Shown in pieces: positions 20,559-63,780 of a stretch of DNA of 64,000 nucleotides. Every line of letters begins with the position of its first letter. The first letter of the stretch is position 1. The notes beneath the pieces were generated by a model, which ran no database searches, was not told the origin of the DNA, and was given only the letters and a program-made list of their open reading frames with translations. Where the stretch lies: the NCBI GenBank assembly GCA_048268245.1, contig JBLWVX010000009.1:11368-75367 (forward strand). The letters are read 5' to 3'. Origin of the DNA: Arcobacteraceae bacterium (GTDB taxonomy: Bacteria > Campylobacterota > Campylobacteria > Campylobacterales > Arcobacteraceae). The translations under genes were made by a program, and so were the position numbers.

Positions 20559-23033
20559 TTATACCTTTGTCACTTTTGCTTTACTATATCTGTAAGTGTT
20601 AAATAAAGCTCTTGAAGCTGAGTTTTTCTCAAAAGTAGATACATATGCAATTTCACCATTAATTTGGATATCAACATAAGCATTTAACTCTAAAGTTTGA
20701 CCATTTGCTTCAATTTTTACCTTATCACCCTCTTGTAACTCTAACTTATCAAATGCACTTTGAGAGAAGAAAACACCTGATTTTAAATCATCTTTAAATT
20801 CATGAGCAATAGCTGTAAATTCATTGAATTGATTAATTGGATTAGCTTTATAAACTACTATTTCATCTTCTGCAAGCTCTAATTTAGATGACAAGTTTAA
20901 TTCAACTTCATCACTAGCCTCGCTTACTAATACAGATAAATCATATCCTCTATACTCAACTCTATCATTTCCAAATTCATTTGGTAATGAATCAAATTCT
21001 ACTGCTTTAAATCCACCTGTAAGTGGTAATTGCTCTGTGTATTCAATTGTATATTCAACTTCATCATTTAACACTATATTTGCAATATCATTTAAGTTAT
21101 AACCTTTATGAGCAAGTGCAGCGTTTGTAGGAATAACTTTCTTATCTACATTTGTGAAAGTTCCTTCTTGTTGATTAAGTGCAGGAATATCTAAATCTCC
21201 ATCACCTAAAGCAGATAATTCAAAGTCAGCTTTTTCATTGTACCCTACAACAAAACCACTCTCTTCTTTTGCTAAGTCACAAATTAAAGATACTCCAAGA
21301 GTATTTGTTTGAGTTGGTAAAATTACAATATCAAAAGCAGTATATCTATCAATAATTCCACATAGTTTTGCTAAATTTGTTGCATTTGGATGAGTGATTA
21401 AATCTTCACCAACAATTAGTGAGAATTTATCTTTTTTAGCAAGCATTGAATCAACTAATTCTAAGAAAGTTTCGTCTTTTCCAAACTCTTCAATAAATAC
21501 GTTGTATTCAAATTCAACTTCTTTTTCAACTTTCTTAGGAACCATTTTTGAAACTTCTTTTTCTTCACCTGTTTCTTCATCTTTTACAATTTCAACAACT
21601 TTTTCTTTTACAGTTTCAACTACAGTTTTAGTTCTCATTTCAGTTTTTGAGTCAATAAACTCTTTGATTGATGCTGGTAAATCTTTTCCAAATTTATATA
21701 AAATAAAGTATAAAATAGCTTCTTGTGCCATTGCATCATGATAAATAAAGTCTGTTGTTTTACCTTTTTTACCAATTTTTTCCATAACAGGATCTGCTAC
21801 TGGGTGGAAGTATAAAGCAGCACCTTTATTCATAATAACTGAATTATTAAAGGCATATCTTGCATTTGGTAAGTCAGATTTTAAATATGAACCAACAGAA
21901 ATTACAAAGTTAGCTTGGTGAACATCAGTTAATGTTGATGAGTATAAAGATCTTCCAGATGTTGATGCATAATTCTTTAAGAATTCTTGGTATCTTCTAG
22001 CATCTTCATTTACAAGTCTAGCACCTCTTTGTTTTGCAAGTTTTTGTAAGATTAAAGCTTCTTCATTTGTGATGTATGAGTTAAATTTAATAGTATCAGC
22101 TTTACTAAATGCTTCAATAGCTTTATTAAATGCTACTTCATCTTTTGCTTCAACTTTGTTTTCAAAATCATATGCAAATCTTCCAGCACCATTTACAGTA
22201 GAGAAATGAGGTTCATTTGTAACTCTATAAATTCTCTTTTGAGCATGGTTATCTATAGATTCTTGTTTGATTTCATAATACATAAATGCACAATCAGATG
22301 AGTGTGGATTAGCTGCTGGAATTTTCTTTAATTCCCAAGCATTTGAAGTATATTGGAAGTCATGAGATACTAAAGCACCTACTGGACAAGCTGAAATACA
22401 CTCACCACAATCAGTACATGCATCACTGTCATATCCAATTAATGATTTATTTAATTTATTCCACATTGCATAAGCATCTTTTGGCATTTCTGCTTTAAAT
22501 GTCTTATCAATTGCATCTGCACCTCTTTTTACAGTAGATAGTGCGTTTGATCCAACCATATCTTTACATACAGTTACACATCTTTCACATACAATACAAA
22601 GTGCTGGATCATAGTTCATAACACCCCAGTGTTGTGTTGGTCTATGAATATCTTTTATACTATAGCTTTGTGAGTCAACATTCATGTATAAAGAGTAGTT
22701 TTGTAATTCACACTCTCCACTTTGGTCACAAACACCACACTGTAATGGATGGTTTACATCGTAAACTTCCATAATTGCACGTCTTTCTTTAGCAATATTA
22801 GGAGTAACAGTTGAGATGTCCATCCCCTCTTTAATCTTAGTATTACAACCATAAACTTGTTTTCCATCTGCTTCAACAAGACATAGTCTACATGCTAAAG
22901 TTGGTGAACATCTAGTTAAATAACAAACCGCAGGAACAAATATATCATTTGCTCTTGCTGTATTTAAGATAGTTTCACCATCTTTTGCCTCTACAGACTT
23001 ACCATCTATTGTTAATGTAATCATATCACTCAT
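20559..23033 (-). CDS. nuoG: NADH-quinone oxidoreductase subunit G
   Basis: CRLCLVE, HPLQCGVCDQSGECELQ, CIVCERCV, CTDCGECISACPVGAL. Confidence 0.96.
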   Translation of the reverse strand: MSDMITLTIDGKSVEAKDGETILNTARANDIFVPAVCYLTRCSPTLACRLCLVEADGKQVYGCNTKIKEGMDISTVTPNIAKERRAIMEVYDVNHPLQCGVCDQSGECELQNYSLYMNVDSQSYSIKDIHRPTQHWGVMNYDPALCIVCERCVTVCKDMVGSNALSTVKRGADAIDKTFKAEMPKDAYAMWNKLNKSLIGYDSDACTDCGECISACPVGALVSHDFQYTSNAWELKKIPAANPHSSDCAFMYYEIKQESIDNHAQKRIYRVTNEPHFSTVNGAGRFAYDFENKVEAKDEVAFNKAIEAFSKADTIKFNSYITNEEALILQKLAKQRGARLVNEDARRYQEFLKNYASTSGRSLYSSTLTDVHQANFVISVGSYLKSDLPNARYAFNNSVIMNKGAALYFHPVADPVMEKIGKKGKTTDFIYHDAMAQEAILYFILYKFGKDLPASIKEFIDSKTEMRTKTVVETVKEKVVEIVKDEETGEEKEVSKMVPKKVEKEVEFEYNVFIEEFGKDETFLELVDSMLAKKDKFSLIVGEDLITHPNATNLAKLCGIIDRYTAFDIVILPTQTNTLGVSLICDLAKEESGFVVGYNEKADFELSALGDGDLDIPALNQQEGTFTNVDKKVIPTNAALAHKGYNLNDIANIVLNDEVEYTIEYTEQLPLTGGFKAVEFDSLPNEFGNDRVEYRGYDLSVLVSEASDEVELNLSSKLELAEDEIVVYKANPINQFNEFTAIAHEFKDDLKSGVFFSQSAFDKLELQEGDKVKIEANGQTLELNAYVDIQINGEIAYVSTFEKNSASRALFNTYRYSKAKVTKV

Positions 23034-23842
23034 TATGCATCAACCTTTTCTATTTTTACTTGCTTATATCTATAACCTTTAAAAAGTTCACTCTCACAGT
23101 TTAAACTTTTTGCTATTGATACAGTACCATTTAACTTATCATCAACTTTTAAAACTCTTTTTGTTTTTTCACCTGCAAAGTTAATAAAAACTTCATTACC
23201 ATCTTGAACTTTTGCAATATTAGCAAAAGATTGACTACAAGATAAAATATCATTCTCTTCTTCATCAATCAATCTATAAACTAATGTTCCGTTATATGAT
23301 TTTAAGTCTTCTATTTCTTCTAAGTCAAAGTTTTCACAAGAGTTAACTTTTTGTTCTAAATCCTTATTTAAAACTACAATATTTAAATCTGAATACTTTT
23401 TAATTACAGCTAGAAGTTTTACAATATTCTCAATTCTATCATGTTCAATAATATCATCACCAACAATTAGTGTTTTGAAAGAAGACTCTTTTGATGCCTC
23501 ATAAACTTCTTCAAACTCTTCTTCCCCTGCACTACTTTCTGCTGAAACATACCCTAAATCTAAATCATCAATATAAGCTTTTACTTCTTTATCACAATCT
23601 TTTACAAAAGCATCAAGAAGTAAAGCGCAAATACCTTCTTCACTTCCTACTTCATATTTTATAAACTGTGTATAATAAAGCTTAATATCAATATTATCAA
23701 TTGGATGCATATAAACAAATTTTGCGTTTGTTTTTGCTATTGATTCAATAATTGAGTCTCTGTAAGCCTCTTTATTATTAGAAAGCATTGTTCCTAAAGT
23801 AATTACAAAATCACTTTTAGCAATTAGCTCTTTTTTATCCAT
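23033..23842 (-). CDS. Epsilonproteobacterial complex I subunit in the nuoF position (no NADH/FMN-binding motifs)
   Basis: Between the nuoE-position gene and nuoG; YEVGSEEG motif; lacks NuoF GRGGAG/Fe-S motifs. Confidence 0.8.
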   Translation of the reverse strand: MDKKELIAKSDFVITLGTMLSNNKEAYRDSIIESIAKTNAKFVYMHPIDNIDIKLYYTQFIKYEVGSEEGICALLLDAFVKDCDKEVKAYIDDLDLGYVSAESSAGEEEFEEVYEASKESSFKTLIVGDDIIEHDRIENIVKLLAVIKKYSDLNIVVLNKDLEQKVNSCENFDLEEIEDLKSYNGTLVYRLIDEEENDILSCSQSFANIAKVQDGNEVFINFAGEKTKRVLKVDDKLNGTVSIAKSLNCESELFKGYRYKQVKIEKVDA

Positions 23843-24117
23843 TATTTAGCATCCTGTGAAGCTTCTTCTTCAACTTCTTTTGGTTCAGGCTTAACTTTCT
23901 TTACAACTAAAGTCCAATCAACTTCATTGAATTTAATAGAGTTCATTAAAGTATATCCTGCTTCATAAATAACATCAGCAGATTTTTGGATATTTTCAAA
24001 ATCACCAATCTCAAACATAATAATAGCCGTTTCACCATCAGCAATTTGAGTATCCATAAGCTCTAACATTCTGTCATAGAAGTCGTTTTTTAAATGTCTT
24101 AAATCAAATCTTTTCAT
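23842..24117 (-). CDS. Epsilonproteobacterial complex I subunit in the nuoE position
   Basis: MKRFDLRHL...FEIGDF...LMNSIKFNEVDW; no 2Fe-2S cysteines. Confidence 0.82.
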   Translation of the reverse strand: MKRFDLRHLKNDFYDRMLELMDTQIADGETAIIMFEIGDFENIQKSADVIYEAGYTLMNSIKFNEVDWTLVVKKVKPEPKEVEEEASQDAK

Positions 24118-32932: not shown

Positions 32933-33852
32933 TAACCTTCAAGTATCATAAGTATTGCTGAAATTGAAAATATCGAAAGTAATGTCTGCATAGTAATAAT
33001 TGCGGACATTAGCTTTAAATCTCCTCCCAATTCCCTTGCCAAAATATATGCACTTGAAGCCGTAGGCATAGCCCCAAAGAGTACAAGAACTAATAACGGA
33101 AGTCCCGTAACACCTAAATTTACAGCTGTAAAGAAAATAAGTACAGGGAAAAGAGCAAGCTTTATAAATACAGATGAGAATAACTCAAACTTCACTTCTT
33201 TTAAATGAGTGATATGTAAACCAACCCCAACAGATAAAAGACCCAAAGGAAGTGCAGCAGCACTTAAAATAGAAAGAGTTTTTTCCACAGGAGCAACAAG
33301 TGAAATATCTAAAAAGTTTAAACCTCCACCTATTATACAAGCTACAATCAATGGATTTTTGAAAATAGATTTTACAAAAGAGATGAAAGTAATCTTATCA
33401 CTTGAGGCATAAATAGAAAAAATCCCTATACAAAATACATTTATACTAGGTATTAAAAAGGTCATAAGTAAAGCAGCTAAAACTAAACCACTATCACTAT
33501 AAATAGCATCTGTTAAAGCTAAAAACACGTAAGTATTAAACCTAATTGAGCCTTGATAAACAGAAGTAAAAGAAGGGCCATCAAAAAAGAACATAATCTT
33601 ATCAGCTATCATAAGTAAGCCTGTGATAATTCCAATAGTCAAAAGAGCTGAAAAAACAAAGTTTACCCCATCTATGTCATCTAAAGAAGCAGTTGAAAGC
33701 TTATAAATCAAAAGAGCAGGAAATAGTATGTAATAGGTAAACTTATCAGCATATTGCCAAAACTGTTCATCAGGGAATTTTATACGCTTTAAAAAGTATC
33801 CTAAAGATATAAGTAAAAAAATTGGTATTAGTGCTAGTAGTATGTTTTGCAT
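32920..33852 (-). CDS. AEC (auxin efflux carrier) family transporter
   Basis: YILFPAL, KNPLI, PLGLLSVG, MPTASSAYILARELGGD. Confidence 0.88.
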   Translation of the reverse strand: MQNILLALIPIFLLISLGYFLKRIKFPDEQFWQYADKFTYYILFPALLIYKLSTASLDDIDGVNFVFSALLTIGIITGLLMIADKIMFFFDGPSFTSVYQGSIRFNTYVFLALTDAIYSDSGLVLAALLMTFLIPSINVFCIGIFSIYASSDKITFISFVKSIFKNPLIVACIIGGGLNFLDISLVAPVEKTLSILSAAALPLGLLSVGVGLHITHLKEVKFELFSSVFIKLALFPVLIFFTAVNLGVTGLPLLVLVLFGAMPTASSAYILARELGGDLKLMSAIITMQTLLSIFSISAILMILEGYQIP

Positions 33853-33935
33853 GTTTATCCTAATAATTTATATAATTAAGATATTATATTTAAGTAGTTT
33901 TATTTTTTGTTTAAAGTATTAGCAAAGAAGTAAAA

Positions 33936-34781
33936 CTACTTCTCTACTAAATCATATAAGGCTTGAATTTCCTCAGCCCAGATAGTTTCATCGATTGTTT
34001 CTAGTACTAATGGAATATCATCCATTCTATCATCATTCATGATAAACTTAAATGCATCCCATCCAATCTGTCCCATACCTAAACTATGGTGTCTATCTAC
34101 TCTACTCCCTAGTTCTGGTTTTGAGTCATTTATATGCATTCCCATAAGATACTCACGTCCTACTACCTCATCAAACTCTTTCCATGTTTTATCATAAGCT
34201 TCTCTTGTTCTGATGTCATAACCAGCTGTAAACATGTGACAGGTATCTATACATACACCAATTCTTGATTTATCTTCAACTTTATCAATTAAGTATGCTA
34301 AATGCTCAAACTTATAACCTAAATTACTTCCTTGACCGGCTGTGTTTTCAATAACTAATTTTATATCATTTGTAGCATCAATTGCTTGATTTAAAGATAA
34401 TGCAATTCTATCTAAACACTCTTCTTCACTTATCTTTCTAAGATGAGAACCTGGGTGAAAGTTAAGTCTATCAAGCTTTAAAATTTCACATCTTTCAATC
34501 TCATGTAAAAACCCATCAAGTGACTTTTGTCTTTTCTCTTCTTCTGGGTGACCTAAGTTGATTAAGTATGAATCATGTGGCAAGATATGTTTTGCTTCGA
34601 TTCCTGTTTCTTCCATCTCTTTAAACCACTTATCTAAAACCTTTGTTTCAAAGTCTTTTGCTCTCCATTGTCTTTGGTTTTTTACAAAAAGAGCAAAGGC
34701 CTTACATCCAATCTCTCTTGCGTTTATTGGGGCATTAAATACTCCACCAGTTGCGCTTACATGTGCTCCTACATATTTCAT
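33936..34781 (-). CDS. nfo: Endonuclease IV
   Basis: [39 protein letters not shown]. Confidence 0.97.
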
Positions 34782-45940: not shown

Positions 45941-47812
45941 ATGAAATACGATATTATCGTTGTGGGTGGAGGACATGCTGGTATTGAAGCAGCCTTAGCA
46001 TCTGCAAGAATGGGTAAAAAAACCCTACTTATTACAATGTTAGTAGAGCAAATTGGTGCTGCTTCTTGTAATCCTGCTATTGGTGGACTTGCAAAAGGGC
46101 ACCTAGTTAGAGAACTAGATGCCTTAGGTGGAGAGATGGGTCTATGTACTGATGCTACAGGTATCCAGTTTAGAATCCTAAATGCCTCAAAAGGTGCAGC
46201 AGTCCAAGGAAGTCGAGCTCAAATTGATATGGATAAATATAGAGAGTATATGAGAAAGGTTTGTCATAACACTGAGAACCTTGAAGTATACCAAGATGAA
46301 GTGAGTGAACTTCTAATAAATGAAAACAAAGAAGTTTACGGTGTAAAAACTAGACTTCAAGAAGAGTTTGAAGCTTCAAAAGTTATCCTTACAACTGGTA
46401 CATTTATGAAAGGACTTATTCACATTGGTGAAAATAAGTACGATGCAGGTAGAGCATGGGAGCTTCCATCATCAACTTTATCTATTCAGTTAAAAGAGCT
46501 TGGATTAAATGTAGGAAGACTAAAAACAGGAACACCTGCAAGAATTGATGGAAAATCAATCAACTTTGAAAACATGGAAATGCACGGGGGAGATGTAAAC
46601 CCAGCACCTTTCTCTTTTAGAACAAATAAAGAAGAGTTTAGCCCTACTCAATACCCATGTTATATCACATACACAAACCTTGATACACATGAAACTATTA
46701 GATCTAACTTTGATAGAACTCCACTATTTACAGGTCAAATAGAAGGTACAGGTCCTAGATATTGTCCTAGTATAGAAGATAAAGTAAATAGATTCGCTGA
46801 AAGAGATAGACACCAACTATTCCTAGAACCACAAACATCTATGTGTACAGAATACTACATAAATGGTCTTTCAACTTCACTTCCTATTGATGTACAAAAA
46901 GAGATGATACACTCAATCGTTGGACTTGAAAATGCAAAAATCATTAGATATGGATATGCTATTGAGTATGATTATGTTGATCCTACTGAGTTAAAACACA
47001 CCTTAGAAACTAAAAAAGTTAAAAACCTTTACAACGCAGGTCAAATTAACGCAACTACAGGTTATGAAGAAGCTGCAGCACAAGGACTAATGGCAGGTAT
47101 CAATGCATGTTTAGCAATAGATGGAAAAGAACCATTTGTACTTAGACGTGATGAAGCCTACATTGGAGTTTTAATTGATGACTTAGTTACAAAAGGAACA
47201 AATGAACCATATAGAATGTTCACAAGTAGAGCAGAATACAGACTTCTTTTAAGAGAAGAAGGTGCTGATTTAAGACTTAGTCCTTATGGTTATGAATTAG
47301 GTCTTATCAATGATGAGACAATTGAAAAAGTAAACTTCAAACAAAAAGTTATTGATGAATCAATAGAATTTATGAAAAATGAATGGTTTACATCTAAAAA
47401 AGAGAACCTTGAACTGCTTGAAAGATTAGGACAAGATAAAATCAAAGATAGAGTACTTTTAATTGATATTGTTGGAAGAAGTACTGTTAAAATTGAACAT
47501 CTTGATGAGTTCTTGCCACAATATGCTGACTTATCAGACTATTTAAAAGAGCAAATCTTAGTAGAAGCAAAATACTTTAGATATGTAGAAAAACAAAAAA
47601 AGCAAATTGATAAGATGAAAAAAATGCTTAAAATGACAATTCCAGAAGACTTTGACTTTAGTCAGATTTCAGGCTTATCAAATGAAGCAGTGGAAAAACT
47701 TCAAAAGTTCAGACCACCTACTCTTTTCAATGCAAGTGAGATTTCAGGAATTACACCTGCTGCTATTGATGTTATTCATATGTATATGAACCTTAAATGT
47801 GAAAAGCAGTAA
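45941..47812 (+). CDS. mnmG: tRNA uridine-5-carboxymethylaminomethyl modification enzyme MnmG (GidA)
   Basis: [50 protein letters not shown]. Confidence 0.98.
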
Positions 47813-47867
47813 AAATTGATAATGTGCAGTAAAAAATGATAATATATATGCTAAAACTTGATAATGA
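47798..47867 (+). repeat. Transposon end: TGTGAAAA terminus plus three putative TnsB-binding sites
   Basis: GCAGTAAAAATTGATAATGT (47806-47825), GCAGTAAAAAATGATAATAT (47826-47845), ATGCTAAAACTTGATAATGA (47848-47867); TGATAAT cores at 47817, 47837, 47859. Confidence 0.85.
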
Positions 47868-47881
47868 AAGTTTAAAATAAC

Positions 47882-49579
47882 ATGTCACAGAATAAAAGTA
47901 TCATCCCTGAATTTATGTCAAATAATCCAACTGATACTTTTAAATTTCTATTCCCTCTAAAACTTAAACTTGATGAAGATAAGTTTGGGAATAGTCATTA
48001 TGAAGTTGTTGTAAAAAACCTTACAAAAAAAGAAGTTTTTACCTACGAAGTTTCCCCTGAATTATTATTTACACACTTTCCTTTACATAAATCATTTAAA
48101 AATGGTGATAATACAGGTGATGAAATACATGAAGATACTTTCACTATAAATTCAAAAAATATAAATAGTGAAAAAGAAAAAAAACTAAAAAATATACTCT
48201 CAAAAAATCAAATTGGAACACTTCTTGGTTGGAGTTTTAAATACATTGATATTGCAAAAAATATTAATTGCTATTTAGTTGAGCATGAAAACTTTAAATT
48301 AATAATCCCTCATTATGCTATAGGAATCTACTATTACTTTAGATTTTCAGAGTTAAGAGAAGCTGCATTAGAATGTAATATTGAAGATTTATATGTAATG
48401 TGTGACGATAATAGAAGTAATGCAAAAATCGTATTATCTAGTCCTAGAACAGATGCAGATGCAGCCTTCATTCATAGGTTTGCTTGTCAAAAAAACGCTT
48501 CTAATGAATTTGATAATATTGGTAGATATATACACAATTATTTATCTTTTATGAGACATGAAGATATAGATAAAGAACCTGGAGATATTCATTTAAAAAT
48601 TAATTTTCCTACTAAAGAGATCTTCCAAATTGATGCAAGAGTGTCTCATTTTAAAGATGAAAAAACAGAAGAAGAATATTACTATATTCATGAAATAACA
48701 AATGATAATTCAGATATTGGATTTGATAAATTTACAAAAATTATTGAACAAAATAAAAATATCACTTCTATTGATAATTTAGAAAATTTATCAAAAGTAG
48801 ACAGAGAAGTACCAGATGAAACAACAGAAAAGCTAAAAGTAATTGATGCTAATAAAAAGTACGCCAGAACAAAGCATCATAAAGATAGAAAAAAAAGTTG
48901 TGGAAGTTTAAACAATATAGAAATTAATCATGAAACATTAACAAAGGCTGTTGTTGAAGACTTATTAAAAATATATAAAGAGCAAGAGGATGGGAATAAG
49001 GTTGACCAAAGCCTTACAGAATCATCTAATAAAGGTGATGTTAATACTAGAAGAGTAATCATATCAAGTGAGTTTCTAAAAAAAGAACAAAAACCTCTTA
49101 ATGAAATAGAAAACTTCAATGTTTTTAGACAGTATATAAACTTTTTAAAACAACAATCTAATATAAAAGAATTAATAATATTTGATGTTAAAAACTTACC
49201 TGAGTTTAAAATTAAAAAAAATGGCGAGGAAAAAGTCAATACTAAATGTAAAATAAAAAGACGTTTAAGACAATATTTAACTTGTACCTTCAAATATGAA
49301 AATTTATATGTTGGACTATTAGAATTAGAAAACTACCCTTCATCTGCTGCTTCGTCATGGGTTATAATTTCAGATAAACCTGTAAATAGTTATACTTTTG
49401 AAAAGTTTATTAAATTATATATAAAAGATAACATGTCTATTCCTGAGATTGTATCAAAATATAAAAATTCTAACCCTAAGTTTTCGAAAAAGAACCATGA
49501 AAGAAATAAAAAGCTAGATAAGATGCAACTTGCAAGATGGTACATAGGGTTATTAGGAAAAATTAATTTAGGTGGTTGA
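47882..49579 (+). CDS. Putative TnsE-like target-selection protein (divergent)
   Basis: 565 aa, first gene inside the Tn end; IIPHYAIGIYYYF..SELREAAL and C-terminal FNVFRQYINFL...LP...RQYL...LLELE...SSWVI...NH...W pattern resemble Tn7 TnsE by eye. Confidence 0.6.
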   Translation: MSQNKSIIPEFMSNNPTDTFKFLFPLKLKLDEDKFGNSHYEVVVKNLTKKEVFTYEVSPELLFTHFPLHKSFKNGDNTGDEIHEDTFTINSKNINSEKEKKLKNILSKNQIGTLLGWSFKYIDIAKNINCYLVEHENFKLIIPHYAIGIYYYFRFSELREAALECNIEDLYVMCDDNRSNAKIVLSSPRTDADAAFIHRFACQKNASNEFDNIGRYIHNYLSFMRHEDIDKEPGDIHLKINFPTKEIFQIDARVSHFKDEKTEEEYYYIHEITNDNSDIGFDKFTKIIEQNKNITSIDNLENLSKVDREVPDETTEKLKVIDANKKYARTKHHKDRKKSCGSLNNIEINHETLTKAVVEDLLKIYKEQEDGNKVDQSLTESSNKGDVNTRRVIISSEFLKKEQKPLNEIENFNVFRQYINFLKQQSNIKELIIFDVKNLPEFKIKKNGEEKVNTKCKIKRRLRQYLTCTFKYENLYVGLLELENYPSSAASSWVIISDKPVNSYTFEKFIKLYIKDNMSIPEIVSKYKNSNPKFSKKNHERNKKLDKMQLARWYIGLLGKINLGG

Positions 49580-49951
49580 TTTTTTATATATTCTAACAAA
49601 ACCTTTCTTTTTCAAGTATTTAATAACTTTTATTACTTCTTTTTACTTTATTTTCTATGAGGATCAAATATTACATAGAATCATATATGAATGATAAAGA
49701 TAAAATTAGAGGATATTCAAATAAACAAAAAAATAAAACTACTAAGTTTTATAGATAATAAGTAAAAGTAAAGTAAGTGATAATACTTTCAAGTTTTTTA
49801 AAGTACTATTTTGAGAAGGATCTATCGATATTAACTGTAAAAAGAATGTTAACCTAAAATTTAAAATTAAATATCATAAAAGAGTTAACCTTTTAGAAAA
49901 AACATATATTGACTTGAGATATAAATATTCCTAGTAAAATCACTATATAAC

Positions 49952-50542
49952 TTATTTAAGACTATTTGAAAAATCCATCATTAAATGAAATAATTTTAAT
50001 GAGGAATGATTTGATGAATATAATTTATTAGATTCTATAGAATTTAAAGAAATAGACATTTTATTTAAATTTTCATCAATATCTATTTTTTCTACTATAA
50101 AGCCAAGCATAGCATTTAATCCATAATAACTTGAATAATATCCTGTTAAAAACCTATCTACACCATTAGTAATATAGTGATTATTTAAAGTTGACTTTCC
50201 ATCTAACCTTTTACATTCAATTATGTAGTAAGCCTTATAATTCTCAAAATCATTAATATCTTTAATTTTTAAATCTACTCTTCCTGTCTTCTCATCAACT
50301 TCTTTATCTAATAAAAAGCCATAAATATTACAAATTTCATTCCTAATTTTTGTCTCAGAAATATATTCATATAAAGTATCTCTAATTTTATTTTCATCAT
50401 TCTTAGGTACTTTTACCTTATCAGCAATCATATATTCATAGCAACTATAAATATTAAGTAATAGGTTTTTAAATGTATTTTCATATATTGTCTCTGATTG
50501 AATAAAAGCAGTAGCATCTAAATCTAATTCTAATTCTTCCAC
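49952..50542 (-). CDS. PD-(D/E)xK nuclease-like protein coupled to the MTase
   Basis: ENKI...GRVDLKI...IIECKRL motif; overlaps the MTase 3' end by 13 bp. Confidence 0.7.
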   Translation of the reverse strand: MEELELDLDATAFIQSETIYENTFKNLLLNIYSCYEYMIADKVKVPKNDENKIRDTLYEYISETKIRNEICNIYGFLLDKEVDEKTGRVDLKIKDINDFENYKAYYIIECKRLDGKSTLNNHYITNGVDRFLTGYYSSYYGLNAMLGFIVEKIDIDENLNKMSISLNSIESNKLYSSNHSSLKLFHLMMDFSNSLK

Positions 50543-53442
50543 TGATTTCTCCCTGCTTTTAATATCGCATTTTTAAACTCATTAAAATCCAAATAACCTA
50601 CAGCTTTGTGCCAGTTTTTATACTCATTAGGTTTAACTACATAAAAACCATTCTTTTCAAAACCTTTAATATCCTTCTGTATAAATAAACTTTCTAAAGA
50701 TTTGGATCCTGATAGTTTTATAAAATTATCTATACTTTTTTCTTCAACCCAGTCTATATTTTTTGAACTATCGCAACTGTTAGTAATTGAAAAAAACATA
50801 CAGATAGCATATTTATTATAGATAACTTTTACATTTAAATACTTTTTTTCATTTTTAAAAATATCTGAAAAATAATTAATATAAATATCCAAATATTCTA
50901 TTAACATATTTTTATCTCTTTGTTTTGATAAGTTTAAACCTTTAAAAACTTTAGAGAAATCTTTTTTCATAATCCAAGGTATTAACACCTCTTGAGAATA
51001 AGATATTAATGTTTTTTCTTGTTCATTTAAATTAAAATCATTTAATACACTTTTATCCAAGTCATTTTTTAGTCTTCTAAGTTTTGTCTCGTCAGGTAAT
51101 AAAATTTCTTCTTTAAAAAAATTTTCAATTTTCTTTACTAAATTAATAGTTTTTTTACTAAAAATAAAAGGAACACCAAACTTCTCAAAATTATGAACCT
51201 GTTCCCTTTCTGTTCCAATTGAAGATGCTGTATGAATCATAATATACTTAAAAATAGATGAATTTAAGATACCCATAATATTGTATAAAGTATCTTTATC
51301 TTTGCATTTCACAGCTGTAATGGAATCTTTAAAAATCGAATCTCTATTTAAAACTCCCATTTTTAATTCAAGCTCTCTACTTATTCCTTTTGATATCAAT
51401 AAAGAGGGTGCCTTAAACAACTCTAAATCTTTAGCCCTATGAACTGATTTTGTTTCCCACTTCTTATCACTTTCTCCAATATAGCAGATTTTAAACTGTT
51501 TTGTTTCTACAAAAGGCATACCAATATATTTAGTTGCATCATTATCATCACAGCCATTCTCGATAATTCCCTGTTTTGCATCTTCATAATTATTTTCAAT
51601 ATTACTGTAACTTTTAAATTTCTTTATCAATTCAAAATCTAAATAGTTTCCATAAATTAATGTTTTCCATAAATAATCATTTTCAATCAGTTTTTGCTGT
51701 AAAACTTTTTTATAATCCTGCTTTGAAATAAATAACATTTTTAATTTATTAAAAAATGGAGTTGGTTTTACGGATATATATTTTATCAACTGATTTTCAT
51801 TTGTTCCTAGCTTGTAAAACATTACTAAAACAGGTGTTGTCGCTGTAGGAAAAACTTCATTTCTTACAGAAGATAACTCTAATATATGATCAATTGAATA
51901 ATTTGATAAGAAATATCTTCTAAAATCTCTAGATTGTACATTATAAAAATTTTTACTGTTTAAAATAAACGCAATTTTTGATTTTTTTATAATATCACTT
52001 GCTCTAAGCATAAAAGCTTGAGAAATTTCTTTATTTCCAATTTTTACATTATCATATGATTTTTTTCTATAATTCAAATATTCAGTTAAAATTTTAGAAT
52101 TCCCAGCACCTCTTTTATATGGAGGGTTTCCTATCATAAAATTAAAATCTATATTTTCTAGAATTTTATTGTAATCTGCAGAATAATCAAAAAAATCTGC
52201 ATTAAAAAAATTTGCTTTAGGGTTTTTATTACTTTCAAGTAAATAAGGAAATTTAAACTCTTCTATATCTTTAGGTTTTAAATAATCTAACATTGTTAGA
52301 TATAATGAAAAAACACTAATCATTACTGCATTTTTATCCTTATCTATTGCATATATATTCTCTTCTACTAAATGCTTGATTTCAGAAGGCTTAATTAACC
52401 TTTTTTTAATTTTCTGAAACTGATGAATTAACTTTCTTAATGTTTCCACTAAAAAAATTCCACTTCCACATGCAGGGTCTATAACTTTACAAGAATATTT
52501 CTCTGGGTTATTATTAAAATATTCGTCAACTGTATGTTTTAAAATATAGTCTACTAAGAAAGTTGGGGTATAAAACGCTCCATTTTTAGATTGTGTTTCT
52601 TCTCCTATGAAGCTTTCATAAACATTTGATATAAATTCTATAGGAATAATAGAAAAATCATAAATATCAAAAAGAGAGCCTTGTCCTGTTTTAATATTTG
52701 TCCCACTAACCAAATCTGATAAAATTTTTAATTGAGATTCTTTTACTTGTAATTCTTCATTTTCAAGAATAGGAAACCAGTCTCCATTAAATCCATCATG
52801 AGACTTTAAATATTTAAATAATATATATGTATCTTTTTTATTATTCAATATAGAAATAAACTTTTCATTATTTAATAATTGTTTTTCACCTTTAAATGAA
52901 AGCTTTACCTTTCTATCAATTAGATATCTAATAAAAATTACTCTTCCAAGTAGTGCATTTGCTAATTCTTTTTCAATTCCTGAGTTTAGTAATTTTATTC
53001 TTGCATTTTTTATATTTTCTAATAGTTTTTTATCAATTTTTTTTTCTGTTTTTTGAAAAGCATCTTGATTAAAATAACTACCATTTAAAATAGATATATA
53101 GTTGAAATCTTTTTTATCTAATTTTTCTAATAAAAAATCACCGTTTCTAATTACATATGCATAAGCATTATACAGTTCATAACTATCTTCTGTTTTTATA
53201 AAAACTATTGGTGATTCTGAAAAGTTCCAACATTGTTTAAATATAAGCTCTTTATTTTCTGAACTTTCAAAAAATAATACTAAAGGCTTATTTTTTGAAA
53301 TTAAAATTGCATAAGGACTAATTGTCATTTCATGAAGAGATTTATTTACTCTTAAAGGAAGATATTCCATATCAATATTTTTTTCATAAAAATATACACT
53401 TTCTTTTTCAAGAAAATTATTTTTACTAAAAATATTTTCCAT
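50530..53442 (-). CDS. N6-adenine DNA methyltransferase with C-terminal target recognition region (Type IIG/Type I-like)
   Basis: GAFYTP, DPACGSGIFL (motif I), GNPPY (motif IV). Confidence 0.9.
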   Translation of the reverse strand: MENIFSKNNFLEKESVYFYEKNIDMEYLPLRVNKSLHEMTISPYAILISKNKPLVLFFESSENKELIFKQCWNFSESPIVFIKTEDSYELYNAYAYVIRNGDFLLEKLDKKDFNYISILNGSYFNQDAFQKTEKKIDKKLLENIKNARIKLLNSGIEKELANALLGRVIFIRYLIDRKVKLSFKGEKQLLNNEKFISILNNKKDTYILFKYLKSHDGFNGDWFPILENEELQVKESQLKILSDLVSGTNIKTGQGSLFDIYDFSIIPIEFISNVYESFIGEETQSKNGAFYTPTFLVDYILKHTVDEYFNNNPEKYSCKVIDPACGSGIFLVETLRKLIHQFQKIKKRLIKPSEIKHLVEENIYAIDKDKNAVMISVFSLYLTMLDYLKPKDIEEFKFPYLLESNKNPKANFFNADFFDYSADYNKILENIDFNFMIGNPPYKRGAGNSKILTEYLNYRKKSYDNVKIGNKEISQAFMLRASDIIKKSKIAFILNSKNFYNVQSRDFRRYFLSNYSIDHILELSSVRNEVFPTATTPVLVMFYKLGTNENQLIKYISVKPTPFFNKLKMLFISKQDYKKVLQQKLIENDYLWKTLIYGNYLDFELIKKFKSYSNIENNYEDAKQGIIENGCDDNDATKYIGMPFVETKQFKICYIGESDKKWETKSVHRAKDLELFKAPSLLISKGISRELELKMGVLNRDSIFKDSITAVKCKDKDTLYNIMGILNSSIFKYIMIHTASSIGTEREQVHNFEKFGVPFIFSKKTINLVKKIENFFKEEILLPDETKLRRLKNDLDKSVLNDFNLNEQEKTLISYSQEVLIPWIMKKDFSKVFKGLNLSKQRDKNMLIEYLDIYINYFSDIFKNEKKYLNVKVIYNKYAICMFFSITNSCDSSKNIDWVEEKSIDNFIKLSGSKSLESLFIQKDIKGFEKNGFYVVKPNEYKNWHKAVGYLDFNEFKNAILKAGRNQWKN

Positions 53443-53541: not shown

Positions 53542-53811
53542 TTGAAAGAGAATAAAAGAATATATAATGTCTTATTTTCAGATATGAAAAAAGAAGACTT
53601 TTTAAAAACTCTAAAAAAGCTTGATATTTCTAAAGCTCAACTATCAAGAGATATGGGTATAGCATATTCAACCGTAAAGTCATGGTATGTAAATAATAAG
53701 AAAATGCCTCTATATGTTGAGAAATATCTCTTACTTCTTCTTAAAGTACAAAAATACAATGATATAGAAAAAAATATAAAAGACTTAACGAAATCAATAG
53801 AAAAGCTGTAA
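53542..53811 (+). CDS. Small XRE/Cro-like HTH regulator
   Basis: ISKAQLSRDMGIAYSTVKSW helix-turn-helix; divergent from the MTase; alternative ATG at 53584. Confidence 0.8.
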   Translation: MKENKRIYNVLFSDMKKEDFLKTLKKLDISKAQLSRDMGIAYSTVKSWYVNNKKMPLYVEKYLLLLLKVQKYNDIEKNIKDLTKSIEKL

Positions 53812-58414: not shown

Positions 58415-58524
58415 AGCTATTCCATATTATGGTTTTATTTATTATATATCAAACTATCTTTTATTTATATTTTAAAAAAAATCTTCGTATTATCAAATAT
58501 TAAATTATAAATAAATCATATAAG

Positions 58525-58558
58525 TTAAAATTTGTTATAATAAAATAACAAATTTTAA
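58525..58558. promoter_or_regulatory. Perfect 14-bp inverted repeat overlapping an extended -10 box
   Basis: TTAAAATTTGTTAT-AATAAA-ATAACAAATTTTAA; contains TGTTATAAT (58533-58541), abuts SD AAGGAG. Confidence 0.6.
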
Positions 58559-58567
58559 GGAGAGTAA

Positions 58568-61060
58568 TTGAGCCTAGAAAAATCATTAGCTACATTAGAA
58601 AGATTGAATGCTAAATATAAAAATTCTGCAATGAATGAATCAGATACTCGTTTTCAAATAATTGATAAAATAATAAAAGAAACTTTTTTTTGGCCAGAAT
58701 CTTCTATTAAAACTGAAAGCCATACAAATGAAGGATATACTGATTATCAACTTAAAGAGAAAAATAAAACCTATTTAGTTATTGAAGCAAAAAAGCAAAA
58801 AATAAAGTTCAACTTCTCTGAGTATAAAGAAATGTCAAATAATAAAATTAAAGTAAAAATTTTATTAAAAGATTCTCAGACAGCAAAAACAATAAAACAA
58901 GTAAAAGATTATTGTAATGATATAGGATGTAATTATGCTTGTATAACCAATGGCCATGAGTGGGCTTTTTTTCGGACATATATTGATGGTGAAAGTTGGC
59001 AAGATGGGAATGCATATATTATAAAAGATTTAGATGACTTTATAAATAAATTTGATGAAATCAATAAATATTTTACTTATAATAAAATAGTTAAAAACTT
59101 TTCATTTAAAAAGTTATTTGAAGGAGGAGACTATAGCTCAACAGAAAGATATGAACCTAAAAGACACATAAAAGGTTACACAGAGCAAATTGAAAATAAT
59201 CATATAACTGTTCAAATTAAAGGATATGTTGATAAATACTTTGGAGAAATACGAATCGATGATGATGAACTATTAGAAAAATGCTATGTAGAAGAAAGAG
59301 GTTATACGATAAATTTTGATAAACTTGTTTCATTACTTGAAGACTCATTATCTCCATATATGAAAAATATAGGTTTACAAAATATAATCAATAATCAAAA
59401 TAATAATTCTCTAAGTGATAAAATTGTAGAAATAATAAAAAAAGAAAAAAAGTCAAAAGTTTTAATTTTATTTGGAGGAAAAGGTTCAGGTAAAACTACT
59501 TTTTTAGTAAGTCTATTTAACAATAAAAAGAATAAGGCTATTAATCAGCAAAGTATTATAGCAAATATAAATCTTCTAAGAGTAGCAAATGATAAAGAGG
59601 CAATAAAAAATGAGATTTTAACTCAACTTATCACAAAACTTGATGTAGATAAAAAATTATCAGGAACAAATCAAGATTTAGAGGAATTGTTTTTTGATAA
59701 ATTTGATGTAGAATTAAAACAATCATTAGAAAATGAAGATCGTAAAAGTGACTACTTTAAAAAAAGAAGAAGTCACTTATTTTCAGAATATAAAAAAGAC
59801 TATATGTATTGTTTAAAAAGATTAGCCTATTTATTAAGAAACAAAAATAAAGCAATTATTATCAATATTGACAACACAGATCAACTTGATCAAGACTTAC
59901 AAGATTATTGTTTTAGCTTATCCAATCAATTATCTGAAAAATTATATTGTATTACAATTATTTCATTAAGAGAAGAAAGATATATAACATCAAGTATCGA
60001 AGGATATTTAGATGCATATGAAAAGAATGGTTTTCATATCAGTTCACCAAATCCCCAACAAGTATTTCTAAAAAGACTACATTTTATACGGGAGAAAATA
60101 AATACAGAAAATAAAATAAAAACTAAATATAAAACAGATATTAATAAATTCTTTCATGTATTAGAAAAAAATTTAGAAAATGAGAAGAGTGAATTTAATA
60201 CTTTTATGACTGCTGCAACACACGGTAATATTAGACAAGGACTTGAACTTTTCAAACATATTTTATTCTCTAGATATACCCATCTTAATGAAATGATTAA
60301 TGATGAAGAGTGGTACATATCATTACATCAAATTTTAAAGCCTATAATGATCCCTATTTATAGATTTTATGATGAAACTACATCTAATTCTATTCCAAAT
60401 ATATTCAGACTAAGAAGTGAATCTAATAGCTCTCATTTTACAGCCTATAGAATATTATCAAAGTTATCAAAGAAAAATGACAGTTACATCTCAATCTATG
60501 AAATAAAATCGTATTTCATTGACACATTTAATATGGAAGATGATTTTAAAGAAAACATTGATATTTTATTAAAAATGGGAATGATTGAGTCTGAAAACGG
60601 CCTTGATAAATACCAAGAGGATTTACAAAAGATTAAAATATCATCATTTGGGTATCATACATATAATATCATTTGTAAAGATTTTACTTATCTAGAGTTA
60701 ATTGCATCTGATTTAATCTATTTAGATAAACAAACTAACAATACAATAATTAGTTACTCAAATAAAGAATACGATTTGATAAAGAAAGGACAAGATAGAA
60801 ATATAACCTCAAAAGAACAAGATGAATATAGATTTAAAAGAGTAAAAGTTAGAGTGTCTAAAGTGAAAAAATTAATTCAATATTTAAAAGAACAAGAGAA
60901 TCTAGAAATATCTAAATATGAATTAAATAAACAAGAAATAATTAGTGAAAAAATTGATAAATCTGTATCAAGTCAAATAGATAATAGAGTTTTAAAAAGT
61001 GCAAGAAAAAATTTAAATATTTCAGAAGAAAAAACTAAAAATGGTATTACGAAACTCTAA
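58568..61060 (+). CDS. HsdR_N-type nuclease fused to a P-loop ATPase (candidate defence protein)
   Basis: NESDTR...YTDY...IEAKK...QVKDY...TNGHEW nuclease domain; GGKGSGKTT Walker A; INIDNTDQ Walker B; GNIRQGL. Confidence 0.78.
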   Translation: MSLEKSLATLERLNAKYKNSAMNESDTRFQIIDKIIKETFFWPESSIKTESHTNEGYTDYQLKEKNKTYLVIEAKKQKIKFNFSEYKEMSNNKIKVKILLKDSQTAKTIKQVKDYCNDIGCNYACITNGHEWAFFRTYIDGESWQDGNAYIIKDLDDFINKFDEINKYFTYNKIVKNFSFKKLFEGGDYSSTERYEPKRHIKGYTEQIENNHITVQIKGYVDKYFGEIRIDDDELLEKCYVEERGYTINFDKLVSLLEDSLSPYMKNIGLQNIINNQNNNSLSDKIVEIIKKEKKSKVLILFGGKGSGKTTFLVSLFNNKKNKAINQQSIIANINLLRVANDKEAIKNEILTQLITKLDVDKKLSGTNQDLEELFFDKFDVELKQSLENEDRKSDYFKKRRSHLFSEYKKDYMYCLKRLAYLLRNKNKAIIINIDNTDQLDQDLQDYCFSLSNQLSEKLYCITIISLREERYITSSIEGYLDAYEKNGFHISSPNPQQVFLKRLHFIREKINTENKIKTKYKTDINKFFHVLEKNLENEKSEFNTFMTAATHGNIRQGLELFKHILFSRYTHLNEMINDEEWYISLHQILKPIMIPIYRFYDETTSNSIPNIFRLRSESNSSHFTAYRILSKLSKKNDSYISIYEIKSYFIDTFNMEDDFKENIDILLKMGMIESENGLDKYQEDLQKIKISSFGYHTYNIICKDFTYLELIASDLIYLDKQTNNTIISYSNKEYDLIKKGQDRNITSKEQDEYRFKRVKVRVSKVKKLIQYLKEQENLEISKYELNKQEIISEKIDKSVSSQIDNRVLKSARKNLNISEEKTKNGITKL

Positions 61061-61165: not shown

Positions 61166-62668
61166 TTACTTCTCTTCTTTTATTTCTGTAATAGTTATGG
61201 ATTCATTAAAAATATAATTAAAAGCTTTATTGCTATTCCAACTAATAATAGACATAAATATATATAATAAACTTACTACAAATAAAACTATTTTAAAATT
61301 AAGTTTTGCGCTTGATAATGCATTTCTTATATGCTCTTTTAATTCTTGTGCAGACATATGATTACGTACTATGTTCTTCCAGGATATTATTAGTTTTTCT
61401 GCTTGTTTAACTACAAATATAAAATGCCATAACCTTAAAAGTAATGAAAAAGCTAAATAAATAGCAAATGCTTTAAAAAAAATATCTGCTTCTTTTGAAA
61501 AAAGCAAATTCTCATTTACTATTTTTTTTGAAACTACTCCAACTGTTAAGATAAATGCAAAGGTCAATATATCTCGTAAAAAGCTAAGTATATACTCGTT
61601 TGTACTTGATATATATTTATCTATTACTCCCACTATGTCTTTTTGTAATTCAGATAGCTCTTTTGTATATTCAGCTTTTCTATCCAATACTACATATTTA
61701 TATCTAGATTTAGCTTCATTAAAAGCTGTATTTATTTTGTTTTTAACTACACCTAATAAACAACTCTTTTCATCTATATCCAAACTTAACCTATCTACGA
61801 GTAATAAAATTCTTGTTGTCTCATCATTTTCAGCATAACACCAAGATACAACCTCCACTAAAGTTTCAATACTTTCTTTATCAATAGATACTTCTCTATT
61901 GTCAGACATTTTAACTTCAATTCTTTTTTTGCCATTCAATATTATCTTATTATCATTGTAGTATTCCTGTACAACTGTATATAAAAGAGATTTTGCTGAT
62001 GCTACATGAAATTTAGTTGCTAGCTCACAATTAATATCACCCCATGTAATTAAAAAGTTCTCAGGTGAAAAATCTACAACATCAGAAGAAATAAAGTGAA
62101 CAGTTTTTTGGATTTTTCCAATACTTGGTAATTTAGTTGAATTTAACCAACCATAGACTGATAAATCAGTAAATCTTTTACTCAAAGGTATTATTGCAAT
62201 TCTTGGACCACCAAAAAAATGTTCTAAATCATAAACATAGATCTTATGTGGAATATAGGCTGTTAAAAAGCCTTGTTCTATTGGATTAGCTAAACCTGAA
62301 GCTTTTTCTAACCATTGTGAAAAATATTCTTTATCAAAAAACAATAACTCTTTTATGTCTTCTGAGGTAGAACTATTATTTAATAACTGTTGTTTATCAC
62401 CTATTGAAAGTTCCCATTTTTTGCTTCCTTTAAATGATAAACTATCCCAGTCTTCTTCAACTTCATCTAATATAAATAAAAACGATTTTTCTAACTTTGA
62501 GGTAATTATATATTCTTTTAACTCACATATTATAGATACTATTTCATCATTTATTTGACCAGAATAATTAATTCCATTTGTGGTCTCTTTTTTATTATCT
62601 TTATCTTTAATATGATTTCTTATTTTCTCTAGTATAAATCCAAGATCGTTTAAATTTAAATTTTCCAT
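61166..62668 (-). CDS. Hypothetical protein with C-terminal transmembrane helices
   Basis: Large soluble N-terminal region, coiled coil, then about 3 hydrophobic helices; start overlaps the upstream stop (TAATG). Confidence 0.75.
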   Translation of the reverse strand: MENLNLNDLGFILEKIRNHIKDKDNKKETTNGINYSGQINDEIVSIICELKEYIITSKLEKSFLFILDEVEEDWDSLSFKGSKKWELSIGDKQQLLNNSSTSEDIKELLFFDKEYFSQWLEKASGLANPIEQGFLTAYIPHKIYVYDLEHFFGGPRIAIIPLSKRFTDLSVYGWLNSTKLPSIGKIQKTVHFISSDVVDFSPENFLITWGDINCELATKFHVASAKSLLYTVVQEYYNDNKIILNGKKRIEVKMSDNREVSIDKESIETLVEVVSWCYAENDETTRILLLVDRLSLDIDEKSCLLGVVKNKINTAFNEAKSRYKYVVLDRKAEYTKELSELQKDIVGVIDKYISSTNEYILSFLRDILTFAFILTVGVVSKKIVNENLLFSKEADIFFKAFAIYLAFSLLLRLWHFIFVVKQAEKLIISWKNIVRNHMSAQELKEHIRNALSSAKLNFKIVLFVVSLLYIFMSIISWNSNKAFNYIFNESITITEIKEEK

Positions 62669-63780
62669 TATTCTTTTTCAGTTATTTTATTTGCAATGAT
62701 CGTAATTTTAACTGCGCCATCTGGCATGACTTCTTTCTTAAGTTGATTTGTACTTCTTTGTCCATCCCAAATAATTTGAATACCAGTATCTGTTTCCCAA
62801 ATACCTTTTCTAGATCTTCCAGGTATACTTTTAGGTTTAGGAGAAAAAGATATTCCTTTTAGCCCTTTATCTGCCATATATTCATCAAAATCATCTTTCA
62901 TCTGATCACTTTTTTTAGAGTCTTCATGTCTACAGATTATATCTTTAAACTCATCATAATCTAATTGTTTGTCTTCGTATGCATCTATATAACTTATTAC
63001 TGAATGTCTAATATCAGCAGGTGTTCTATTACCTTTATCACCTTCATAAGATTTCGCCCATGCATGACATTCTGTAACTATCTTTTTAGTTAATGAAGAA
63101 TCATTTTGTTTTAATCTTATACCCATAAAATTCTTAAAGTAATCAGTAATAGCTATTTCAGTATCTAAAAAAGCTCCTGTTTTTTTTCTTTCTACTGCTA
63201 GAACATCCCATTCAAATTCATTCCCAATATTAACTAATGCTCTTTTTTGGACAGATGTTTTTTGCTCAGATAAAGCTTCTAATACTTCTTCTAGTTCAAC
63301 AACACTTCCATTTTTATGAGCTCTATGTTGTCTCATAACAGGTGTATAATCTAACTTAAGTAAAGCAAGAAATGAAACTCTATCTATATTTACAGGTATA
63401 GTCACTCTTGCGACAATTAATACTCCATCAGACATACTTCCTCCTGTATGCCGAGATAAAAAGTCTTGTGCTAGTAGTCTCGATACTTTTACAAAATTTT
63501 TATCTGGACTTTTAATTATACTCTCGCAATTTTTTTGGAAAGGTGTAGTATTATCATTCTTATCTACACTTTTTAAATCATTTATAAATTTATATTGTGT
63601 ACCTTGACCTGTTTCAGCAATAATTTTCCTAAAAAATTCTTTTTGTCGATCATTAGCTAAGTGTACTTCCTCTAAATACTCTGGTTTTTCTTCATCTTTT
63701 TTTATTATATGATATATGAAGTTTTCTACTTGAAGTTGACTTTTCTGTTCTTCACTTAAAACACTATCTCTTCCTCTCAT
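62668..63780 (-). CDS. YejK/NA37 nucleoid-associated family protein
   Basis: FIYHII, SDGVLIV, LALLKLD, VQKRAL, YFKNFMG pattern typical of the NA37 family. Confidence 0.72.
   Translation of the reverse strand: MRGRDSVLSEEQKSQLQVENFIYHIIKKDEEKPEYLEEVHLANDRQKEFFRKIIAETGQGTQYKFINDLKSVDKNDNTTPFQKNCESIIKSPDKNFVKVSRLLAQDFLSRHTGGSMSDGVLIVARVTIPVNIDRVSFLALLKLDYTPVMRQHRAHKNGSVVELEEVLEALSEQKTSVQKRALVNIGNEFEWDVLAVERKKTGAFLDTEIAITDYFKNFMGIRLKQNDSSLTKKIVTECHAWAKSYEGDKGNRTPADIRHSVISYIDAYEDKQLDYDEFKDIICRHEDSKKSDQMKDDFDEYMADKGLKGISFSPKPKSIPGRSRKGIWETDTGIQIIWDGQRSTNQLKKEVMPDGAVKITIIANKITEKE

Follow-up and report, generated by a model that had tools for sequence, protein, structure and literature searches.

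The window analysed here is a stretch of 64,000 nucleotides (positions 11,368 to 75,367, forward strand) of contig JBLWVX010000009.1, from the Arcobacteraceae bacterium genome assembly GCA_048268245.1. Directly behind the mnmG gene it carries an open reading frame (ORF) of 565 codons (47882-49579, plus strand; Table 1). We propose, with a probability of about 0.7, that its product is a divergent TnsE-family protein, which would act as second target selector for a Tn7-family transposon at least 16.2 kb long. This transposon also encodes TnsA, TnsB, a short TniB-type TnsC and TniQ, and is inserted in mnmG.

The ORF lies where the initial annotation had placed it and begins with an ATG, a start backed by the conservation of the N-terminus (M1, P9, F11 and M12 are unchanged across 10 relatives). 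It is not a chance frame, as the protein matches 272 database proteins at E ≤ 0.001 and 136 cluster representatives in an exhaustive search of the representatives, the named homologues belonging to Aliarcobacter species. The spaced motifs on which a resemblance to TnsE had been suspected are found in the translation, with IIPHYAIGIYYYFRFSELREAAL at residues 141-163 and LLELEN, KNHE and ARW in the C-terminal part.

Our proposal is supported by the following observations. First, the predicted fold points to TnsE. The AlphaFold2 model of the protein is confident throughout (predicted local distance difference test, 90.5; predicted template modelling score, 0.73), and in a Foldseek structure search the top seven rows are all C-domains of the TnsE proteins of E. 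coli and Thiopseudomonas, with E values from 6e-3 to 4.5e-2, probabilities of 0.99-1.00 and target template modelling scores of 0.58-0.66, the subsequent rows having probabilities of at most 0.23. The C-terminal 160 residues are thus predicted to adopt the TnsE C-domain fold, and both its central antiparallel sheet and its V-loop are present in the prediction. By the residue numbers of Shi et al. 2015 (PMC4678854), the V-loop of E. coli TnsE reads VDASDGVKMLS, and the stretch that matches it is of equal length in our 56-sequence profile alignment. A further fold search with the TnsE-like protein placed the FP domains of Fbxo7 and PI31 at ranks 2 and 5, and the PI31 FP domain is the sole remote neighbour named for the TnsE C-domain in the same paper (PMC4678854). 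For the N-terminal region, which in TnsE consists of two OB/PriB-like single-strand-binding folds (Faure 2023, PMC10293859), the best Foldseek match of the model had an E value of 1.1.

Second, judged by sequence, homology to proteins named TnsE in the databases extends over the whole protein. The profile of its close clade (A3) aligns with that of nine more distant sequences (A4) over 541 columns (hhalign probability 100, E 2.4e-56). Full-length members of the same family include a Sulfurimonas sp. SWIR-19 protein called 'Tn7-like element transposition protein TnsE' and Aliarcobacter and Sulfurimonas proteins called 'TnsE C-terminal domain-containing protein', of which those from Aliarcobacter are 57-61% identical to the protein studied here, all of these names coming from the databases only. 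A word-based search with A4 returned 87 proteins, of which the three named ones are all from Sulfurimonas and none named is from Gammaproteobacteria. Pfam TnsE_C is matched at E ≤ 0.01 by 10 of the 46 distant full-length homologues, three of which exceed the curated cut-off of 26.7 bits, and one of the matching homologues carries the NCBI name TnsE. When the 56-sequence profile was compared with the PDB, the C-domain of Tn7 TnsE (5d17_A) came first (E 0.021), with the aligned blocks LLEVD/LvEie, LST/lST, NHPK/KHPk and W.ER/RWc.r. The conserved motifs are spread over both domains; in the N-terminal region, the sole invariant column among the 56 sequences is P143, located in IIPHYAIGIYYYF, a stretch that we take to resemble the clamp motif of Tn7 TnsE.

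Third, the gene lies inside a transposon whose boundaries are clear. The DNA homology of mnmG to its close relatives ends at about 47790 (one metagenome contig diverges at 47789), and the insertion gives MnmG a new C-terminus and stop codon, ...NLK being followed by CEKQ and stop. Behind the terminal TGT, three repeats with the core (A/T)TGATAAT occur at 47813-47824, 47833-47844 and 47855-47866, that is, with a spacing of 20 and 22 bp, and a longer 19-nt form of the repeat has two matches where 0.12 are expected by chance. The third repeat precedes the ATG of the 565-codon ORF by 15 nt; the repeats reported by the initial annotation are therefore real, and only its distance of 14 bp needs correcting. 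The window runs to the end of contig C9 of this 2.68-Mb genome (57 contigs), and the far end of the element is found at the end of contig C36 (about 23816-24003), where ...ACA is followed by TTAAA, by AAAGAAGAATCTAACTAA and by an AT-rich inverted repeat. This AAAGAAGAATCTAACTAA is the displaced native tail of mnmG (...KKEESN and stop), and the AT-rich inverted repeat may be the displaced mnmG terminator. Hence the transposon spans the assembly gap and is at least 16.2 kb long. As the element extends from 47798 past the contig end and has displaced the native mnmG tail, the lack of an evident terminator after mnmG, which had been remarked upon and which holds for the whole of 47600-50100, where no terminator-like site was seen, is explained.

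The same boundaries recur in ten related loci, taken from complete or long assemblies, which we examined. An end of this form, TGT and three repeats, occupies the same place in eight of them (type 1), and the other two (type 2) have a TGT end with a repeat type of their own. The far ends of the relatives read ...ACA, with 5-24 kb of cargo beyond tnsA, and matching 5-bp duplications flank the element in seven relatives (G070, G131, G126, G159, G130, G011 and G135) as they do in the present genome. The mnmG-side end holds three sites within 69 bp, and the far ends have one terminal site plus one or two sites about 100-140 bp inside. We take the mnmG-proximal end with its dense array to be the counterpart of Tn7R, the side on which tnsA sits in Tn7, so that the description of the gene as occupying the tnsA position is apt. 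A conserved coding block of mnmG lies 17-69 bp upstream of the insertion point, at a constant distance from it in 10 of 11 loci (G089 is shifted by 2 bp). The insertion falls within the final codons of mnmG, and its orientation is fixed.

Fourth, the element carries the gene consistently, next to its mnmG-side end. In nine of the ten loci the order is mnmG, TGT end, TnsE-like gene, 0-9 kb of cargo and, facing the latter gene, tniQ-tnsC-tnsB-tnsA. The TnsE-like protein is matched in 23 of 151 sampled genomes of the family, and all 15 full-length or near-full-length copies stand directly behind mnmG. The gene is present in every one of the 13 genomes, this one included, that have a TnsC at least 79% identical, a co-occurrence for which the initial annotation had called (the G049 copy is broken by stops), and two genomes with a TnsC of 43-44% identity have TnsE-like homologues of 27-31% at the same place. 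The gene abuts tniQ in G126 and G131, where the two stop codons are 36 and 183 nt apart; in G066 it lies behind mnmG and no TnsC is found at E ≤ 1e-20. It is because of the 15 copies behind mnmG, the linkage to TnsC and the abutment on tniQ that we assign the gene to the element. Full-length frames are maintained at 27-72% identity in at least eight genera of the family. A further homologue occurs outside mnmG, in a Tn7-like element of the Nitrosophilus labii plasmid pHRV44 (NZ_AP022827.1, 13222-32266), which comprises a duplicated tnsA-tnsB, tnsC-tniQ, cargo including a 1153-residue methylase and, distal and on the opposite strand, a TnsE-family ORF of 519 residues, annotated merely as hypothetical (hhalign probability 98.1, E 1.1e-13). 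Inverted ATTATTCAAATATA repeats stand at both sides of this element, around which no matching target-site duplication was found.

Several relatives carry composite or reduced loci behind mnmG. In G126 (oriented coordinates 2809-2942 and 33678-34221), an older resident copy has been interrupted at about codon 8 of its TnsE-like gene by a 30.8-kb element of the same type, with the duplication TCATT; this new insertion is about 108 bp from the usual mnmG position, and what is left of the resident copy is its end, a TnsA fragment and residues 4-68 of TnsE. In G131 (about 20765-20796, oriented) and G135 (about 20800-20833, oriented), elements of the TGATAAT and TGAGAAT types stand in tandem behind mnmG with the same 5-bp duplication, which suggests that one insertion point is used repeatedly without cross-immunity. 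Remnants by mnmG in G101, G116 and G085 consist of the transposon end and the start of the TnsE-like gene (39-45 codons). A far end follows about 190 nt on in G101, so that a non-autonomous miniature element of about 450 bp is formed, and a type-2 element end comes next. Such remnants are probably the source of many short database proteins, limited to residues 1-50 or 1-75.

The layout of the element is best understood by comparison with known systems. Tn7 itself has a long TnsC and carries tnsE as the final gene of tnsABCDE. The initial annotation regarded a TnsE paired with a short TniB-type core as unusual, but the same pairing has already been reported, and its function shown, for Tn6022-like elements (PMC10293859, PMC11014353). 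According to these papers, the tnsABCDE operon is that of Tn7 (PMC10293859); tnsE occurs in Tn7 relatives and, as structure-predicted remote homologues, in Tn6022-like transposons (Faure 2023, PMC10293859); Tn6022 TnsABC and TnsE transpose into the F plasmid (2024 Nucleic Acids Research paper on Acinetobacter islands, PMC11014353); and Tn6022 has both TnsF and TnsE, in separate roles (PMC10293859, PMC11014353). As in Tn6022, the tnsE-like gene here is remote and on the opposite strand, at the end distal from tnsABC-tniQ, and TnsC is of the short TniB type (PMC10293859, PMC11014353). It is convergent with tniQ-tnsC-tnsB-tnsA, and 4,241 nt separate its end from the tniQ stop, in keeping with the opposite strand and the distance of over 4 kb first described. 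The Tn6022 gene set of TnsA, TnsB, short TniB-type TnsC, short TniQ and distal opposite-strand tnsE is present in full. Likewise, a comM element of A. baumannii that we examined has a 598-residue ORF right behind, and co-oriented with, the 5' comM fragment, as the gene here stands behind mnmG, together with a TnsC of 306 residues (TniB 1.4e-61).

The differences from Tn6022 are equally clear. The sequences are very distant, the core proteins being 22-35% identical to those of the A. baumannii comM element and the 598-residue ORF aligning with our family profile at an hhalign probability of 64.6 (E 6.3e-5). The target is mnmG and not comM in all 15 full-length loci. There is no TnsF (an inactivated tyrosine recombinase) by tniQ; between tniQ and the TnsE-like gene the window has only a helix-turn-helix (HTH) protein, a type IIG enzyme and a 196-residue ORF. 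Lastly, tnsA is away from the element end, and the tns operon is flanked by cargo on either side. With the Tn7 TnsE of E. coli (5D16/5D17) and that of Thiopseudomonas alkaliphila (9D5L), the protein shares the order of an N-domain followed by a C-domain and a similar length (565 versus 538 residues; PMC12153342), and like Tn7 TnsE it is encoded in a Tn7-family element beside a selector of the TniQ/TnsD type; however, its C-domain is only 14-17% identical, and its gene stands alone at the attachment-site end, convergent with the operon. No description of an mnmG-targeting Tn7-like element or of Campylobacterota proteins named TnsE was found in the searchable open literature, and three of the four supplementary files of Faure 2023 contain no mention of Arcobacter, Aliarcobacter, mnmG, Sulfurimonas or TnsE. 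Tn6022 thus already provides the layout; what is new is the mnmG target, the occurrence in Campylobacterota and the absence of TnsF, the cargo on both sides being a further difference.

By analogy with Tn7 and Tn6022, we propose that TniQ would home the element into mnmG through the conserved coding block upstream of the insertion point, and that the TnsE-like protein would open an alternative pathway into replicating DNA. In this second pathway the C-domain would bind duplex DNA without sequence preference, the N-terminal OB-like region would read the single-stranded part of 3'-recessed ends and contact the sliding clamp, and TnsC, then TnsAB, would be recruited to lagging-strand replication structures, such as those of conjugating plasmids. 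As to expression, the gene is co-oriented with mnmG and starts 69 nt past its new stop, so that, with no terminator between them, read-through from mnmG could transcribe it. Alternatively, the repeats, which form TTGATA-16 nt-GATAAT at 47816-47843, could make up a putative promoter within the TnsB sites. Read-through and a promoter occluded by TnsB are both plausible proposals. Three public sequencing runs (one recorded as RNA, two guessed to be RNA) covered only the mnmG part of 47400-49700 and are uninformative on the expression of the gene.

A number of results weigh against a TnsE-type selector. The protein has no match in Pfam, NCBIfam or PADLOC (TnsE_C gives none at E ≤ 10); PF18623 finds nothing in the whole genome at E ≤ 1; and five close homologues named 'TnsE C-terminal domain-containing' in UniRef do not match Pfam TnsE_C at E ≤ 10 either. 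The profile match to 5d17_A is marginal and interleaved with an unrelated PSTPIP1 row (E 0.036), and the A4 profile matches no PDB chain at E ≤ 1. Direct searches with the protein itself gave, in the PDB, only ATP synthase subunit d (phmmer, E 0.17) and, in the ESM Atlas, no usable match. The model gives residues 300-400 an ordered beta structure, in contrast to the disordered linkers of E. coli TnsE (PMC12153342). Finally, a tblastn search of the PLSDB plasmids with the TnsE-like protein found no match, and all 15 full-length chromosomal copies are at mnmG, so that no product of a TnsE pathway is seen in the clade.

The main alternative, drawn from the minimal gene set, is that homing into mnmG requires both the short TniQ and the TnsE-fold protein, the latter in a role like that of TnsF at comM, instead of or besides the targeting of replicating DNA. 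The smallest elements (G126 and G131) contain only tnsA, tnsB, tnsC, a short tniQ and the TnsE-like gene, and neither a protein of TnsD length, nor TnsF, nor Cas genes; the short TniQ and the TnsE-fold protein being their sole accessory proteins, the latter may help homing into mnmG. The 390-residue TniQ has the TniQ domain (residues 18-157) as its only recognised part and its nearest solved relatives are partner-dependent TniQs, and the confinement of the full-length copies to mnmG fits as well. On the other side, in a solved complex the TnsE C-domain shows no sequence preference in its binding of duplex DNA (PMC12153342), Tn6022 has both TnsF and TnsE and gives them separate roles, the approximately 230 uncharacterised residues of TniQ past its TniQ domain could themselves bind DNA, and one family member is in an element on a plasmid, pHRV44. 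We regard this alternative as rather unlikely. A more elaborate idea, which we rate as improbable, is either that the TnsE-fold protein has been recruited into the TnsF role of assisting TniQ at mnmG, or that the gene works as a switch, read-through from mnmG driving plasmid-hopping and TnsB occupancy damping it.

It appears quite improbable that the protein, though derived from TnsE, has lost target selection and, for example, regulates transposition or is a decaying relic retained through linkage to the end. The very weak direct sequence signal to TnsE, the linker region unlike that of E. coli TnsE, and the N-terminal fragments and stop-broken copy of the relatives (G049, G101, G116 and G085) would agree with such a loss, but the frames kept at full length in at least eight genera, the motifs conserved in both domains of a protein whose fold is confidently predicted throughout, and the unchanged length of the V-loop-matching stretch argue against it. 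Lastly, a gene of the host or the cargo that is unrelated to TnsE and stands downstream of mnmG by chance would account for the lack of a direct family match, but is scarcely credible given that the gene lies inside both the TGT boundary and the target-site duplications, has no match in 128 of the 151 genomes though a search of 31 relatives matched mnmG DNA in 30, has a fragment 30 kb from mnmG in the copy split by the nested insertion, and encodes a protein whose predicted fold matches TnsE.

Table 1. Features of the mnmG locus and of the transposon, in window coordinates.
Feature	Position	Strand	Remarks
mnmG	45941-47812	+	Pfam GIDA 6.4e-164; last 4 codons and stop (47798-47812) come from the transposon end
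Target-site duplication TTAAA, near copy	47793-47797		Same 5 bp after far end ...ACA on contig C36
Transposon end by attachment site	47798-47866	+	Terminal TGT and three closely packed putative TnsB-binding repeats
Proposed TnsE-family gene, 565 aa	47882-49579	+	ATG start; N-region 1-402 (beta-rich, OB-like); predicted TnsE C-terminal domain fold 405-565
196-aa ORF, cargo	49952-50542	-	Pfam PDDEXK_9 E 0.0016, below cut-off; 13-nt overlap with next gene
Type IIG restriction enzyme-methyltransferase, 970 aa, cargo	50530-53442	-	PADLOC REase_MTase_IIG 2e-192; Pfam Eco57I 1.4e-19
89-aa ORF	53542-53811	+	Weak Pfam HTH_26 E 0.0014, below cut-off
tniQ, 390 aa	53821-54993	-	Pfam TniQ 3.4e-22, residues 18-157
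tnsC, short TniB type, 289 aa	54996-55865	-	Pfam TniB 8.2e-53
tnsB transposase, 625 aa	55875-57752	-	Pfam Mu-transpos_C 6.8e-14; rve 1.2e-4, below cut-off
tnsA endonuclease, 220 aa	57752-58414	-	Pfam Tn7_TnsA-like_N 1.3e-8; NCBIfam TnsA-like 2.2e-8
Further cargo to contig end	58415-64000		830-aa P-loop NTPase, 500-aa ORF, 370-aa NA37-family protein
830-aa P-loop NTPase	58568-61060	+	AAA/STAND matches sub-threshold; PD-DExK match weak
500-aa ORF	61166-62668	-	Weak MinE-like match only
370-aa NA37 nucleoid-associated family protein	62668-63780	-	5.3e-14

Regarding the core genes, TniQ, the presumed selector for the mnmG site, has the TniQ proteins of CRISPR-associated transposons as its nearest solved chains, and the nearest solved chain to TnsC is VchTnsC of Tn6677 (2.6e-11). 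Judging from their sequences, the three ORFs beyond tnsA and the type IIG enzyme look like defence cargo; PADLOC found no system in these three ORFs at E ≤ 0.001 apart from weak rows. Two places on this side of the element, near tnsA (58415-58567) and at 61949-61973, were considered as its far end and rejected, neither having a terminal TGT/ACA with a matching duplication. A motif resembling a TnsB site, TTTGATAATACGAAGA, occurs at 58486-58499 on the minus strand, about 75 nt upstream of tnsA, and is kept in 7 of 10 sequences (the window and six of nine relatives); its word TGATAATACGAA is also an inner site of the far end on contig C36, and the motif may be an operator for TnsB autoregulation or the relic of an older end. 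Just upstream of the 830-codon ORF, a perfect 12-nt inverted repeat at 58527-58556 (AAAATTTGTTAT, 6 nt, ATAACAAATTTT) is likely an operator or a terminator.

Together, these data describe a well-bounded Tn7-type family in Arcobacteraceae and other Campylobacterota, for which the 3' end of mnmG serves as a safe site, and they extend the Tn6022 layout of a distal TnsE with a short TnsC to another phylum, in a form without TnsF. As these elements carry restriction and defence-like cargo and stack in tandem behind mnmG, they would shape a genomic island in food- and water-borne Aliarcobacter. Their compact five-gene versions, with about 6.5 kb of genes, could be a handy system for studying the recruitment of a short TnsC by a TnsE-type protein.
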